The position numbers were made by a program, and so were the translations under genes. The notes under the pieces were generated by a model that saw only the letters and a program-made list of their open reading frames with translations, had not been told where the DNA came from and did not search any database. Below are positions 604 through 5,262 of a stretch of DNA of 10,479 nucleotides, piece after piece. Numbering within the stretch: position 1 is the first letter of the stretch; each line of letters begins with the position of its first letter. The stretch lies in the sequence record NZ_CP022360.1, one strand, 5' to 3'. Source of the DNA: a plasmid.

Positions 604-906
604 TTATGCTTCTCTAATCATTGAAAAGCCATGCTTAATCCCACTAAGACACTCTCTTTCAATATGCTTTTCACTACCCGCTAATGAGGCAATAGCTATG
701 CCGATCTCATTAGCTAAATCACATACCTCAATATCCTTCTGTGGAAGATCGCTTAAGGCTGCCATTAGCTTAGTTATGAACATTTCAACATCAACTCGAT
801 TTGATACAGTGGCTTGTTCACGCAAGTAAGCCTCAAGAACGGCAGGATTGGCGAGCGCCGCAGCTTTAACTTCTGCAAATGGAATACCTTTAACCTTGTT
901 ATTCAC
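604..906 (-). CDS. TraJ-like ribbon-helix-helix DNA-binding protein, candidate oriT-recognising relaxosome accessory factor, about 100 aa
   Basis: GTG at 906 is preceded by AAGGTGG with 6-nt spacing; the ORF-track alternative is TTG at 960. The N-terminal segment KVKGIPFAEVKAAALANPAVLEAYL resembles RP4 TraJ KVYCLPDERRAIEEKAAAAGMSLSAYL (E-x-KAAA...L-x-AYL). The gene is transcribed away from the RP4-like nick region at 1037-1061, as traJ is in RP4. Confidence 0.55.
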   Translation of the reverse strand: MNNKVKGIPFAEVKAAALANPAVLEAYLREQATVSNRVDVEMFITKLMAALSDLPQKDIEVCDLANEIGIAIASLAGSEKHIERECLSGIKHGFSMIREA

Positions 907-916
907 TATTATCCAC

Positions 917-931
917 CTTGATTTTGTAACT
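917..931 (-). promoter_or_regulatory. Shared operator-like motif AGTTACAAAATCAAG (reads on the minus strand) between a putative extended -10 (TGTGATAAT, plus coordinates 960-968) and the RBS of CDS 604..906
   Basis: Exact 15-mer is also present at 2394-2408. Related copies at 1321-1345 and 3298-3312. Confidence 0.5.
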
Positions 932-1008
932 TTTTCAATAATTGAGGTTGCTTGATTCAATTATCACAGGGAAGGAATTGAGCGCCGGAATGGAGCGAAT
1001 ATATCCAA

Positions 1009-1062
1009 GTGAATAGGGCAGCCTGATTTATCAAGGTAGGCCTACTTCACACATCCTGCCCA
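1009..1062 (+). other. Origin of transfer, IncP/RP4 (MOBP)-type. Imperfect inverted repeat 1009-1027 / 1034-1052, then nick region ACTTCACACATCCTG|CCC. Predicted nick between 1058 and 1059.
   Basis: GGCCTACTTCACACATCCTGCCC at 1039-1061 matches RP4 oriT GGCCTACTTCACCTATCCTGCCC at 21 of 23 positions. The left arm AAGTGAATAGGGCAGCCTG is an imperfect reverse complement of CAAGGTAGGCCTACTTCAC, as in RP4. A TraJ-like gene is divergent on the left, the same layout as RP4. Confidence 0.6.
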
Positions 1063-2411: not shown

Positions 2412-3281
2412 TTAACGACCTAAATACACAGCAGTAACTTGTAACCGGCTATGCCCTAACTCACCGGTTATCACAGTTCTGGCGTACCTATCAGCGGCTT
2501 GTTGCGCCGCGGGTAATGAACCAACAGAAACACCCGATACCGCCGGACATTCAAAACCGGTCAGTTCCACATAACGGCGATGAGCGTAGCTGTGCCTTAA
2601 CCCATGTGCCCTATCCAATCCAATTTTTATACAGGTATTTTCATAGCGTTTCATTTGCTGCACATAACTGAGTTCTTTCGGAATAAGCGATCTGCCGGCA
2701 GCTAATGCTTTCGCCTCTGCCAATAGTTCATGCTGAGCAGCCGTTAAAATCTGGATCGCGCGATCTCGACCGCCTTTGCACCAGGACGCATCAAGTACCA
2801 AACGATCACCCCGATCCGCTTTCGCCGGCTGGATCTTCATGGCTTCTTCACGCCGTAATCCAAACGCTGCCTGCAGGCGCAAGGACATTTGCACATACTG
2901 ATCGGTTATCAAATTTAGTCGCATATCACTCAATTTTCGGCTCTTATTTTCATTGGTGACATACACTCTACGGCTAATCCCCACCGAGTCATTGGAGCGC
3001 GGTATAAGGCCATTTTTACCGATTTTTTCCGCTAACCACCGTAGATGTGCCATACGATTTTTAATCGTGCCCAGGGCAAGGCCCTCAGCTTGCCAATGAG
3101 TAACTAATGCTTCGATGTGCTTAGGTTTTAAATTATTGAGTTTAAGCCCTTTAAAACCCAAGGCAACGAGCTGTTTATCGACTAATTTTATGGTTTTGAA
3201 TCGTTCTGATTTAGTCGCAAAAGAGCTTGGGTTGTGCTGCCGCAATAGCTTGCTGGCCTCAAAAAAGAAATTGGTCGCCAT
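2412..3281 (-). CDS. Tyrosine-type site-specific recombinase/integrase, 289 aa
   Basis: Catalytic signature is present: LRREE (Arg I), HGLRHSYAHRRY (H-x-x-R box II), LGHSRLQVTAVYLG (His/Tyr nucleophile region). AAGGTG lies 4 nt before the ATG. Confidence 0.9.
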   Translation of the reverse strand: MATNFFFEASKLLRQHNPSSFATKSERFKTIKLVDKQLVALGFKGLKLNNLKPKHIEALVTHWQAEGLALGTIKNRMAHLRWLAEKIGKNGLIPRSNDSVGISRRVYVTNENKSRKLSDMRLNLITDQYVQMSLRLQAAFGLRREEAMKIQPAKADRGDRLVLDASWCKGGRDRAIQILTAAQHELLAEAKALAAGRSLIPKELSYVQQMKRYENTCIKIGLDRAHGLRHSYAHRRYVELTGFECPAVSGVSVGSLPAAQQAADRYARTVITGELGHSRLQVTAVYLGR

Positions 3282-3288
3282 AATGCAC

Positions 3289-3310
3289 CTTGAAAAAGTT
3301 ACACAATCAA
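3289..3310 (-). promoter_or_regulatory. Near-duplicate (20/22) of the 2385-2406 promoter element, immediately upstream of the integrase RBS. On the minus strand it reads TTGATTGTGTAACTTTTTCAAG, but it lacks a good -10.
   Basis: Plus strand cttgaaaaagttacacaatcaa versus cttgaataagttacaaaatcaa. Confidence 0.5.
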
Positions 3311-3333
3311 AAAATAGAATTTAATTTTGAGAT

Positions 3334-3363
3334 AAAAAGCACGCCCATTCGGGCGTGTTTTAA
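3334..3363. terminator. Bidirectional intrinsic terminator: AAAAA GCACGCCC ATTC GGGCGTG TTTT
   Basis: 7-bp GC-rich stem 3340-3346 / 3351-3357. T-run 3358-3361 on the plus strand. On the minus strand the stem is followed by CTTTTT. Confidence 0.55.
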
Positions 3364-3708
3364 GAGGAATATATTTCTCGAGGGCTAACAACACGGCGAC
3401 CTATTTCTAGGCCATTTCGGAATTCAGTTCAGTGTTAATGCTCGTTCTGACTGCCGACACAGAAAGAACCCACCGGCAAACCGGTGATATTGAGCGAGTG
3501 TTGTTACGGGCAATTGCCCAAATGGTGTGGCTCTGTTGAGCGCAAACATCCAAATATAATGACCCATAAGCTCTGTTGAGCTTGGAGATTACTAGGTGAT
3601 CAAAGAGGTTTCGTTATTTGGCATCAATGGATGCGAGGTGAAGAAACTTGACTGTACCTCATGCTAAATTACAGCGCAAGCCACTGCTTCGGCGTCACGC
3701 CTCAAAAA

Positions 3709-3807
3709 GCAAAAAATGACGCTACCCCCGCATGAGGAACACCATTTGGGGGTAGTGTCACTCCCTTAAAATGGAGTGACACTACCCCGCTTGACGTCAT
3801 TTTTTGC
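3709..3807. repeat. Nested inverted-repeat element: outer 13-bp IR GCAAAAAATGACG / CGTCATTTTTTGC enclosing a perfect 16-bp-stem hairpin (GGGGTAGTGTCACTCC-cttaaaat-GGAGTGACACTACCCC) and a competing 8-bp stem (CTACCCCC / GGGGGTAG). Contains TGACGTCA.
   Basis: Coordinates read directly: 3709-3721, 3722-3729, 3748-3755, 3749-3764, 3773-3788, 3795-3807. Confidence 0.7.
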
Positions 3808-3999
3808 TCATTGAAAGAACTAGCCACTTTGCTCTTGGCGATAGACTTCGCTAATCACCTATCGCTCAGAGGCCCTAAAATGCGTTTTAAGCAACATTTT
3901 TAAAAAATGGCATGTTGCTATACGTTTATCTTTTTAGCGGGTTTTACAGCGTTTTAACCATGTTAGCATTGATGATAGAGGTGGATTTACCTCCTTCCT

Positions 4000-4270
4000 G
4001 CTAGACCTGAGCGAAGCGATGCTTTTAGCAAGAAGTACAGCACGTTTGTTGTTAAACGGTCGGAGACAAACGGAACTAATAGCGAGGTTTTTATGCTCGC
4101 CCCTAGCGAAGCTAGGAAATGGCGAGGCATTAATGGGTAAGGGTGGAGCCTTTAGGCGAACTAGGGCGAAGCCCTTGGTCGCGGCGCAGCCGCTGCTCTT
4201 GGGGGCGCCGGAAACGAGCGAAGCGAGGGGAAGGGCCGGCGGGGGCAAAGCCCCCTGGAGGGGTTCTTAC
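4000..4270. other. GC-rich island (non-coding by my reading) with a cluster of tri-loop mini-hairpins: CCTAGC-GAA-GCTAGG (4102-4116), GGGC-GAA-GCCC (4162-4172), GCGGC-GCA-GCCGC (4182-4194), GGGGGC-AAA-GCCCCC (4241-4255). GAGCGAAGCGA is repeated at 4010-4020 and 4216-4226.
   Basis: Contrasts with the AT-rich surroundings. Contains the GCGAAGC motif four times. The ORF-track frames here (3934..4248 minus, 4019..4285 plus) overlap each other and give low-complexity Ala/Arg/Gly-rich translations. Confidence 0.6.
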
Positions 4271-4284
4271 TTCCCGAAATTTTA

Positions 4285-4500
4285 AAGTTTTCCACATGAT
4301 TTTTACTTTGTAAGATCTTTATCTTTCTTGTTTGTATAGATCTTTCTTGTTTGTAGCACCTCTGAACACCTTGATACGCAATGATTTCAGCGGTGATAGG
4401 TGGAGAGATTTACGGTGAAAAGCACTTTATAGGAGGAGAGATTTACGGTGAAAACAGAACTGATAGGTGGAGAAATTTACGGTCATATCCACAAATTAAA
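4285..4500. other. Vegetative replication origin (oriV) of an iteron-type theta replicon: DnaA-box-like TTTTCCACA (4288-4296), AT-rich tract with GATC at 4314-4317 and 4339-4342 and a 16-bp direct repeat ATCTTTCTTGTTTGTA (4321-4336, 4340-4355), iteron array, DnaA-box-like ATATCCACA (4485-4493)
   Basis: Classic layout directly upstream of a Rep_3-type rep gene. Confidence 0.75.
4395..4486 (+). repeat. Three iterons, about 27 bp each, consensus (G/T)ATAGGWGGAGARATTTACGGTGAAAA, at 4395-4421, 4428-4454, 4462-4486, with 33-34 bp periodicity
   Basis: Direct repeats read from the sequence. Confidence 0.8.
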
Positions 4501-4519
4501 GAGAAGTTAATTTACAACT

Positions 4520-4544
4520 ATTCCTCCTATATGTAAGGTGGAAT
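4520..4544. promoter_or_regulatory. Inverted repeat ATTCCTCC-n9-GGTGGAAT containing an iteron half (GGTGGA) between the origin and the repA start; putative Rep autorepression operator
   Basis: 8-bp arms with one mismatch. The spacer TATATGTAA could serve as a -10. Confidence 0.5.
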
Positions 4545-4569
4545 AATCTATCAACAATATCTCCTTTGT

Positions 4570-5262
4570 ATGAATTCAAAACTTGCAGTAACGAAAGCAA
4601 ATAGCCTTTTAGATGCTCGATATAGACTTAATGTACAAGCACAAAAGTTGGTTTTAGCCTGTCTGAGCAAGGTAGATCCTCGACCAGATTCAACCCCGTT
4701 AAAAGAGGTCAGGTTATCAGCCCTAGAATTCTCAGAACTTATGGGGATAGATATAAAAAACGCGCATAGAGAGCTATACAAAGCGGCAGATTTACTTTTT
4801 AAATCAACCATAACGCTCTATGAGAACGGTGAAGAAATAGAACTATATTGGATTCAAGAAAAAGCAAAAAAAATTAAAGGTGATGGTGCAGTTAGGTTGG
4901 TTTGGTCTGATCGCGTATTAAAATACATAACTCAGCTAAAGAGTAATTTTACTACCTACAAATTACGCAACATCGCAAATCTTCAGTCTGCACACTCGAT
5001 CCGTCTTTACGAACTGCTTTCACGTTTTAACGACAAAAACTTTAGAAACATTAGTCTAGATGATTTCAGATACGCATTAGGCGTCGATGATAAATATCCG
5101 CTTTTCAAAGATCTAAATAAATGGGTGATAAAGCCTTCCGTTCAAGAATTAAACCAGCGGAGCGATCTTGTTATCACATACGAAACCATCAAACATGGAA
5201 GGAACGTAACCGCACTAGCTTTCACCCTGAAACCAAACAAACAGTTGAAAATGGATCTCTAG
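4570..5262 (+). CDS. repA: Replication initiator protein, Rep_3 (RepA/RepB iteron-binding) family, 230 aa
   Basis: N-terminal NSLLDARYRLNVQAQKLVLACL is the hallmark Rep_3 motif. Iterons and DnaA boxes lie immediately upstream. No obvious SD. Confidence 0.9.
   Translation: MNSKLAVTKANSLLDARYRLNVQAQKLVLACLSKVDPRPDSTPLKEVRLSALEFSELMGIDIKNAHRELYKAADLLFKSTITLYENGEEIELYWIQEKAKKIKGDGAVRLVWSDRVLKYITQLKSNFTTYKLRNIANLQSAHSIRLYELLSRFNDKNFRNISLDDFRYALGVDDKYPLFKDLNKWVIKPSVQELNQRSDLVITYETIKHGRNVTALAFTLKPNKQLKMDL

Follow-up and report, generated by a model that had tools for sequence, protein, structure and literature searches.

The definition of single-strand initiation (ssi) signals goes back, to our knowledge, to work done decades ago on a few E. 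coli plasmids and phages; annotations hardly ever include them, and they form no searchable family. In plasmids R1 and R100, the leading strand has a primase-dependent start downstream of oriR, the so-called G-site. Within the R100 sequence, the strand complementary to repA carries, downstream of oriR, CCGGC-GTAA-GCCGG followed by TACTG, as well as CCGC-GTTA-GCGG, and in the sequence record of phage G4 GGACGGCGAAAGCCGCCGTCC (hairpin I) is followed by CTACTG. Mini-hairpins of the GCGNAGC and GCGNNAGC types are extraordinarily stable as DNA, far weaker as RNA and poorly bound by SSB, the protein that coats single-stranded DNA, and they are located at the primase start of phages G4 (GCGAAAGC), St-1 and alpha3 (GCGTTAGC), and in ssiA of RSF1010 (PMC13037366). 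In this study, a plasmid-derived stretch of 10,479 nucleotides (record NZ_CP022360.1) was analyzed; this whole stretch is hereafter called the window, and coordinates refer to it unless another locus is named. At about 3997-4296 it contains an element composed of a row of such mini-hairpins, which are selected as structures on the + strand. What we rate as new here, judging from the sequences, is a modular, portable, origin-flanking hairpin cassette of marine gammaproteobacterial plasmids and phage-plasmids, which shares the hallmark mini-hairpins of the ssi/G-site class.

A row of hairpins folding on the + strand

An earlier note on this DNA, made from the letters alone, had described positions 4000-4270 as a GC-rich island of mini-hairpins lying in AT-rich DNA beside an iteron origin. 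The GC content is indeed 58% in 4000-4270 and 60% in 4101-4300, compared with 36-42% in the flanks. The four hairpins listed in that note were found at 4102-4116, 4163-4175, 4181-4193 and 4241-4255, and the two copies of GAGCGAAGCGA, 206 bp apart, at 4010-4020 and 4216-4226. Stems of at least 4 pairs closed by a 3-nt loop number seven in 4000-4270, whereas 5000 shuffles that preserved the dinucleotides averaged 1.28 (P = 2e-4). Three of these seven are GNA-looped (0.10 expected), and GCGAAGC is present in four copies (0.12 expected, with a maximum of two in any shuffle). The island itself is therefore real, but its limits had been drawn too narrowly, as the unit runs from the boundary motif YCCTGCY to a DnaA box (3997-4296) and is modular. 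Its parts, together with a hairpin preceding it, are as follows:

3978-3993, + strand, hairpin GAGGT-GGATTT-ACCTC, 4 nt 5' of the conserved CTG
3997-4006, + strand, left boundary motif CCTGCTAGAC (consensus YCCTGCYNRRC), containing at 3998-4000 the sole CTG kept across clades
about 4008-4135, + strand, module A, comprising H0, H1 and the core hairpin
4008-4020, + strand, hairpin H0, TGAGC-GAA-GCGAT, core GCGAAGC at 4011-4017, with tandem G.A stem mismatches in the window copy
4059-4067, + strand, mini-hairpin H1, GTC-GGA-GAC (loop GGA, GAA or GTA in the family)
4096-4126, + strand, core hairpin CTCGCC-CCTAGC-GAA-GCTAGG-AAAT-GGCGAG, in which two helices stack and 4 nt bulge out on the 3' side
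4138-4195, + strand, module B, an optional insert, GGGTGGAGCC-TTTA-GGC, hairpins B1 and B2
4163-4175, + strand, hairpin B1, (A)GGGC-GAA-GCCC(T)
4181-4193, + strand, hairpin B2, GCGGC-GCA-GCCGC (family loops GCA, GGA, GAA, GTA, ACA)
4196-4270, + strand, module C (47 distinct sequences, metagenome contigs included)
4288-4296, + strand, DnaA-box-like site TTTTCCACA, directly 3' of the element

The most widely conserved unit is the core hairpin, which is found from Shewanella through Vibrio phage-plasmids and is directly followed by an invariant GGCATT (4127-4132). Module B may be missing, and module C is absent from the large plasmids. Homologues of H0 have Watson-Crick stems of 5 bp (GTTGC/GCAAC, GCCGC/GCGGC or GTCAC/GTGAC) and GAA, GTA, GCA or GGA loops; the use of tandem G.A mismatches by the window copy explains the repetition of GAGCGAAGCGA. 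In module C, helix P1 (CGCCGG at 4206-4211 paired with CCGGCG at 4236-4241) encloses a sequence-conserved loop carrying the mini-hairpin GC-GAA-GC (4218-4224) and G-tracts, and 3' of P1 there is a terminal hairpin GGGGGC-AAA-GCCCCC (4241-4255), followed by the motif AGGRGGGTT. On its + strand (4201-4263), module C keeps five conserved G-tracts, and the GC skew has positive values throughout 3900-4500; together, these features give a potential for G-quadruplex or R-loop formation.

The strongest evidence that these hairpins matter as structures comes from their covariation. Among 20 distinct variants of the core hairpin, obtained with a search pattern that admitted non-complementary combinations at the covarying positions, 99.2% of cells are paired and four pairs are changed on both sides (C-G/G-C/A-U, A-U/G-C and G-C/C-G); the covariation score was reached by none of 500 shuffles, and it collapsed in slid controls. 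The middle pair of H1 is T-A, C-G or G-C (RNAalifold pair 39-47: UA 14, CG 5, GC 1), and for module A as a whole the RNAalifold consensus consists of H1 and the core hairpin alone, with no larger fold. All cells of module C pair. Its helix P1, across the 47 distinct sequences, shows 229 Watson-Crick, 53 G.T and no A.C cells, and one of its pairs follows a path from C-G through U.G to U-A. The 2-bp mini-hairpin GC-GNA-GC covaries to AC-GAA-GT, while the middle base of its loop takes all four values (GAA, GTA, GCA, GGA), and the terminal hairpin is closed by C-G, G-C or U-A.

The loops are mostly 3-nt C-GNA-G or GNNA, some of the conserved stems have only 2-3 bp, and in five separate hairpins the G and the A of the loop are fixed with the middle base left free. 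Family-wide, GNA triloops outnumber their TNC complements on the + strand by 71 to 4. Since every wobble is, on the + strand, a G.T and none is an A.C, it is the + strand that folds. The hairpins are selected as structures, on the + strand, and the strand-specific structural signal that the earlier note had offered as one of its options is thus borne out by the compensatory changes, by the wobbles and by the ratio of GNA to TNC loops.

Distribution and association with replication origins

A sensitive BLAST search revealed pieces of the element in 33 PLSDB plasmids (31 of Shewanella and 2 of Pseudoalteromonas), where the copies are unannotated with one exception; the homologous stretch of pSXM33 is annotated as a 'hypothetical protein'. 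Scanning of species-representative genomes with the core-hairpin pattern indicated 35 loci, and a profile search recovers the element in ~45 loci of Shewanella, Marinomonas, Vibrio, Alteromonadaceae and one Neptunicella chromosome, to which one Vibrio phage and five IMG/VR contigs are to be added as carriers. The module C pattern matched 61 metagenome contigs, about half of which hold genuine copies; the metagenome contigs in which module C recurs number about two dozen.

The constant partner of the element is a replication origin. A DnaA-box-like TTWTNCACA on the + strand is located within 260 nt 3' of the element in 57 of the 74 distinct copies (median distance 54 nt), against 3% in the background, which makes the island a part of the origin, as previously supposed. 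Most of the copies lacking a match to the DnaA box have near-variants of it, and AT-rich DNA follows. Within the window, the neighbouring iteron origin comprises:

4313-4355, + strand, AT-rich region in which the 13-mer-like ATCTTTCTTGTTTGTA, containing GATC, is directly repeated (two copies)
4394-4492, + strand, three iterons of 32-34 nt each (direct-repeat search)
4570-5262, + strand, gene of a Rep_3 family initiator (Rep3_N 3.4e-36, Rep3_C 1.8e-21)

By its resemblance to the 13-mers of oriC-type origins, 4313-4355 is the presumed unwinding element.

The orientation of the element relative to the DnaA box and the AT-rich region is constant across three initiator types. Genes of Rep_3 initiators are co-directional with the element. 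In the large Shewanella plasmids, module A is succeeded by a hairpin with a DnaA box (GGTGGATTTATCCACC), then by AT-rich DNA, and then by repeats of CTTACTCC and by TTATCCACA; adjacent to this region, a gene for a conserved ~245-aa protein is convergent with the element. Convergent genes encoding RepA of the IncFII family are found in the Vibrio phage PhiPS02, in Vibrio and Neptunicella loci and in IMG/VR contigs; in these replicons it is the strand complementary to repA that bears the core hairpin, just past the origin's AT-rich end. The corresponding features of the large Shewanella plasmids are:

L005 3113-3128, L006 3108-3123, L014 3081-3096, DnaA-box hairpin GGTGGATTTATCCACC, directly 3' of module A
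L005 3427-4161, L006 3418-4149, L014 3392-4138, L016 3364-4116, - strand, gene for the ~245-aa protein

The ~245-aa protein gave no Pfam or NCBIfam match and showed no similarity to IncFII RepA, and its context makes it a candidate for an undescribed initiator family. The window hairpin at 3978-3993 resembles, by its sequence, a degenerate copy of GGTGGATTTATCCACC. As the orientation is kept while the initiator differs, the module is tied to the unwinding side of the origin and not to one initiator. The recurrence of such clusters near other Rep_3 origins, which the earlier note had suggested looking for, was observed, and it extends to origins with other initiators. Taken together, the element constitutes a profile-recognisable sequence family with clear covariation, located on the DnaA-box/AT-rich side of origins that belong to at least three initiator families.

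Several individual loci deserve a comment. Inside the Neptunicella sp. chromosome record (L023), the core hairpin is accompanied by an IncFII-family RepA gene in convergent orientation, which may represent an integrated plasmid or a plasmid-derived origin. Near-identical Shewanella-type copies are present on contigs binned as Noviherbaspirillum, Bacillota, Arenicella and Labilibaculum (L022, L028, L031, L032, L040), which are probably mis-binned plasmid contigs. In the 306-bp Contig12 of S. decolorationis S12 (L050), the Illumina adapter AATGATACGGCGACCACCGAGATCTACACTCTTTCCCTACACGACGCTCTTCCGATCT is fused to the element, which is an assembly artefact. The 21-mer GAGCGNAGCGAGGGGAARGGC occurs in about half of the 61 metagenome matches (L057, L059, L063, L067, L072 and others) in unrelated contexts, devoid of P1, the terminal hairpin and the DnaA box, and may belong to another repeat family.

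The window as a whole looks, by sequence similarity, like a small Shewanella-type plasmid, the closest matches being pNUITM-VS1_2 of S. xiamenensis (94%) and a plasmid of S. putrefaciens (96%). To the left of the island there are an AT-rich spacer, further conserved hairpins (3832-3871 and 3978-3993) and a recombinase gene:

2412-3281, - strand, tyrosine-recombinase gene, left of the island

Between this gene and the origin, at 3702-3814, long inverted repeats are nested, among them one whose 20-nt arms are separated by 73 nt and one whose 19-nt arms are separated by 2 nt, and this may be a recombination or resolution site. The hairpin at 3832-3871 has the arms CTCTTGGCGATAG/CTATCGCTCAGAG and the loop ATAGACTTCGCTAATC; its loop motif ATAGAC-N3-GCTAATC is kept in the small plasmids L020, L027, L029, L041, L043 and L047, and its counterpart in L040 has a different, compensating stem. 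Elsewhere in the window, toxin-antitoxin pairs and a second integrase were identified, and GCGAAGC at 1518 and 1588 (+) was judged coincidental, both occurrences being placed inside a CopG/RHH-like open reading frame (ORF) at 1413-1670. Neither a primase, a helicase nor a relaxase was found in the window.

Proposed function and alternative explanations

We tentatively favor the view, which we hold at slightly less than an even chance, that the element is a portable cis-acting origin module serving as a single-stranded DNA signal for priming or helicase loading on the + strand. Action as single-stranded DNA is suggested by the GNA loops on tiny stems, by the DNA-specific stability of such hairpins (PMC13037366), by the mutual independence of the hairpins, by the absence of an Rfam match and by the absence, in the window, of a promoter and of a + strand terminator. 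The geometry of R100, the same relative strand in the IncFII-type relatives and the equivalent order in the window (iterons, AT-rich region, DnaA box, element) suggest how such a signal might work. The initiator and DnaA would open the adjacent AT-rich region, and the helicase would proceed away from the iterons. The + strand, now single-stranded, would snap into a row of very stable C-GNA-G/GNNA mini-hairpins, and, as SSB is poorly bound by hairpins of this type, they would leave a defined site open to access while SSB coats the rest of the strand. The host primase could then start the first primer there, in a G-site-like manner, or DnaB could be loaded by a primosome of the DnaA or PriA type and would in this case travel on the + strand toward the iterons. 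Everything from the formation of the hairpins onward, including the priming or loading function and the recognising enzyme, is what we infer. The earlier proposal of a lagging-strand priming or primosome assembly site stands as far as a + strand-specific origin signal is concerned, with priming as its conjectural part; the folded strand would be the leading-strand template for a fork that leaves the unwinding region in the direction away from the iterons, or the loading strand for a helicase moving toward them; the element is not simply a lagging-strand site.

Several observations weigh against this assignment. The ssi/G-site class is defined by function, and the element is known here from its sequence. 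A comparison of the element profile with R100 (39601-40700) and with the G4 region by nhmmer gave no match at E<=100, and homology to these priming sites was rejected at the sequence level. The CTG is not conserved 3' of the core hairpin, of B2 or of the terminal hairpin, the sole conserved CTG being situated at the 5' edge of the element, and a hairpin just 5' of this CTG is present in 19 of the 47 variants compared with 32% of control positions, which is no general enrichment. The global folding energy of 3996-4296 is ordinary (z about -0.4 against shuffles), whichever strand is folded and whether it is folded as DNA or as RNA, so the case rests on the local mini-hairpins and on the covariation. 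As to the latter, the pairs were counted in hand-registered alignments of N-padded, equal-length rows, as MAFFT misaligned triloops against tetraloops when applied to the core hairpin; in module C, the terminal hairpin was parsed according to its pairing, so that this particular helix was fitted to the structure. The remaining adverse points are those that speak for an RNA: a sigma-54-type promoter aimed into the element, which suggests its transcription in six large plasmids, a homology that ends sharply 5' at CCTGC in many clades, and the folding of the + (sense) strand with G.U-type wobbles tolerated.

According to this alternative, which we regard as unlikely, yet as the most serious of the competing explanations, transcription runs rightward through the element from about 3998 and yields a functional RNA, either a primer or R-loop transcript that activates the adjacent origin (similar to ColE1 RNA II or mitochondrial CSB) or a small regulatory RNA. 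The promoter in question, TGGCAY-N5-TTGCA, is placed 11-12 nt 5' of the boundary motif CTGCTAGAC in six loci of large Shewanella plasmids:

L005 2949-2964, L006 2944-2959, L013 2959-2974, L014 2910-2925, and L034 and L036, sigma-54-type motif

In all the fetched DNA only 10 motifs of this type occur, and the spacers of the six loci have diverged. Some loci of this clade also have a hairpin followed by a T-run after module A, e.g., GGTGGATTTATCCACC GCTTTTTTG in L014, and the combination of promoter and hairpin/T-run makes it probable that the element is transcribed in the large-plasmid clade. In addition, the + strand is G-rich, with a positive GC skew and the five conserved G-tracts, a composition that favors R-loops. 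The structured RNA for which the earlier note had left room is thus kept alive by the sigma-54-type promoter in one clade. Against an RNA, the window and most of the small plasmids show no promoter of the sigma-70 or sigma-54 type at that place. Scans of 3300-4600 gave no sigma-70 promoter, and terminators were predicted on the - strand only (3340-3487) and none on the + strand. Other clades continue with GNA hairpins of the same style 5' of the supposed start. Stems of 2-3 bp with 3-nt GNA loops are stable as DNA and weak as RNA (PMC13037366). The consensus fold consists only of small, isolated hairpins strung together by variable linkers, the minimum free energy is ordinary, and Rfam 15 gave nothing relevant in the whole window (for 3800-4400 at E<=10, the best match had E = 2.8). 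Finally, in the IncFII-type replicons such an RNA would run convergently into repA, outside the known control of that replicon.

A combined reading may be put forward, in which a promoter at the left edge drives a G-rich transcript, an R-loop forms over 3998-4290, and the displaced + strand folds into the array of mini-hairpins and G-tracts and recruits priming or helicase loading near the DnaA box. It would join the sigma-54-type promoter with + strand folding, as the transcript would free the G-rich + strand, but we consider it doubtful. If it were true, a single portable cassette would link Rep_3, IncFII-RepA and other replicons to a regulated promoter, and in the sigma-54 clade replication would come under the control of an enhancer-binding protein.

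Action as duplex DNA is improbable. In this case the island would be a GC-rich clamp limiting the melting of the AT-rich region, or a set of palindromic protein-binding sites. The GC-rich block directly abuts the DnaA box and the AT-rich region, and GC-rich segments beside the unwinding element have been described for some iteron origins, e.g., oriV of RK2. However, the bases of the stems are free to change provided that they still pair, a freedom that a protein reading the sequence would not permit, a duplex offers no reason for G.T over A.C or for GNA over TNC on one strand, and modules B and C can be absent.

Slightly less probable still is a role in conjugation, in which the hairpins would prime complementary-strand synthesis on the transferred strand in the recipient and not serve vegetative replication. 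An Rfam match to traJ-II at 960-1061 (- strand; 38.3 bits, just below the gathering score of 40) and a nic-like ATCCTG|CCC at 1053-1061 (+) indicate an IncP/RP4-like origin of transfer (oriT), oriented so that the + strand would be the transferred one. The adjoining ORF at 604-960 (-) is in the position of traJ and has no Pfam match; as no relaxase is encoded in the window, mobilisation of the plasmid may take place only in trans. In L011, a traJ gene of the same orientation is found at a distance of a few hundred nucleotides from the element, and ssi signals in leading regions are a known class. Nevertheless, what constantly accompanies the element is the DnaA box with the AT-rich origin and not oriT, many carriers are typed as non-mobilizable, phage-plasmids carry the element too, and in the window it is ~3 kb away from the nic site. 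The likeness of CCTGC to the RP4 site ATCCTG|C was also considered, and a nic site at this motif was set aside, as a much better IncP-type oriT is present at 960-1061 and the motif travels with origins and not with transfer genes.

That the island encodes a small protein can be practically discounted: the overlapping ORFs 4019-4285 (+) and 3934-4248 (-), of 88 and 104 codons, exist, and the pSXM33 stretch is annotated as coding, but the substitutions against homologues are distributed evenly among the codon positions (with L003, 17/18/19 in the + ORF and 32/29/32 in the - ORF), both frames are broken by common indels of 1, 2, 8 and 10 nt, whole modules are missing in relatives, and neither ORF has a Pfam match, in agreement with the non-coding character assumed earlier.

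If the element is a priming or loading signal, it would provide a tractable system for the placement of the first primer at iteron origins, and GNA mini-hairpins would be shown to be selected in vivo as DNA. It would also account for a recurrent unannotated block in plasmid origins, from which both the prediction of origins and the construction of Shewanella and Vibrio vectors would profit. The sigma-54-type promoter of one clade would be an unusual tie of replication to regulated transcription.

Comparison with described priming sites

Similarly to the RNA II primer of ColE1, the element is structured, G-rich, proximal to the origin and oriented toward the start of DNA synthesis. In contrast, ColE1 has an antisense RNA I and neither an initiator nor iterons, whereas here iterons and a Rep_3 gene are present and no promoter was found in 3300-4600.

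The phiX174-type PriA sites and the ABC primosome sites are likewise hairpin-dependent helicase-loading sites near plasmid origins, and these classes are defined by biochemistry. A DnaA box within a hairpin is the arrangement of DnaA-dependent 'ABC primosome' sites, and the large Shewanella plasmids have such a hairpin, GGTGGATTTATCCACC, directly after module A, with the box spread over its stem and loop. In the window, by contrast, the DnaA box at 4288-4296 is part of no convincing hairpin, and the hairpin at 3978-3993 lacks a box. The GAAGCG(A/G) recurring in the element recalls what we take to be the AAGCGG motif of n' sites.

The ssiA and ssiB sites of RSF1010 (IncQ) resemble the element in having a GAA mini-hairpin (CCGAAGG in RSF1010) in an iteron origin, beside GC-rich and AT-rich segments, and the RSF1010 ssi hairpins are recognised on single-stranded DNA by primase (PMC13037366). 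IncQ plasmids differ in that they encode a RepB' primase and a RepA helicase of their own and have two sites in opposite orientation; here no primase or helicase domain is encoded by any ORF of the window, and nhmmer found in it a single copy of the element, on one strand. In the pHW126-like plasmids pIGMS31 and pIGRK, which belong to a different replicon family, an ssi-like palindrome beside the iterons is non-essential, and its loss alters the copy number and causes multimerisation (bioRxiv 10.1101/2022.12.05.519187), which indicates the phenotype to be expected.

The complementary-strand origins of G4, St-1 and alpha3 share with the element the same mini-hairpin motifs and the succession of several hairpins along a single strand; among the homologues, core hairpins contain GCGAAGC, exactly GCGTTAGC, or GCGATAGC. 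They differ in what follows, as hairpin I of G4 precedes CTACTG and the core hairpin precedes GGCATT, and in the setting, which here is the theta origin of a plasmid and not a single-stranded DNA phage. A hairpin 5' of the conserved CTG was present in all the IncFII-type members examined. In L025, L039, L052 and L116, all of this type, GGCC-GAA-GGCC, AGGGC-AAC-GCCCT or AGGAC-GAA-GTCCT stands 9-11 nt 5' of the CTG, an arrangement that reproduces the geometry of G4 hairpin I plus CTG. Stable hairpins on the template strand, which characterise G4-type ssi signals and G-sites, are represented by seven conserved hairpins, mostly C-GNA-G or GNNA, with the exclusion of SSB taken from PMC13037366.

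A further close parallel is the G-site of R1/R100. Unlike that site, which is ~400 bp from the AT-rich region, the element lies only ~20-60 nt away from it, and it serves Rep_3 and other replicons too. In both cases, GC-rich hairpins capped by GNNA or GNA loops are located past the AT-rich end, on the strand complementary to repA, which in the IncFII-RepA loci would be the leading-strand template if the direction of replication is assumed to be that of R1. The analogy with phage and plasmid priming sites, which the earlier note had drawn for phages, is thereby strengthened, as in the IncFII-RepA replicons the core hairpin occupies the place of the R1/R100 G-site.

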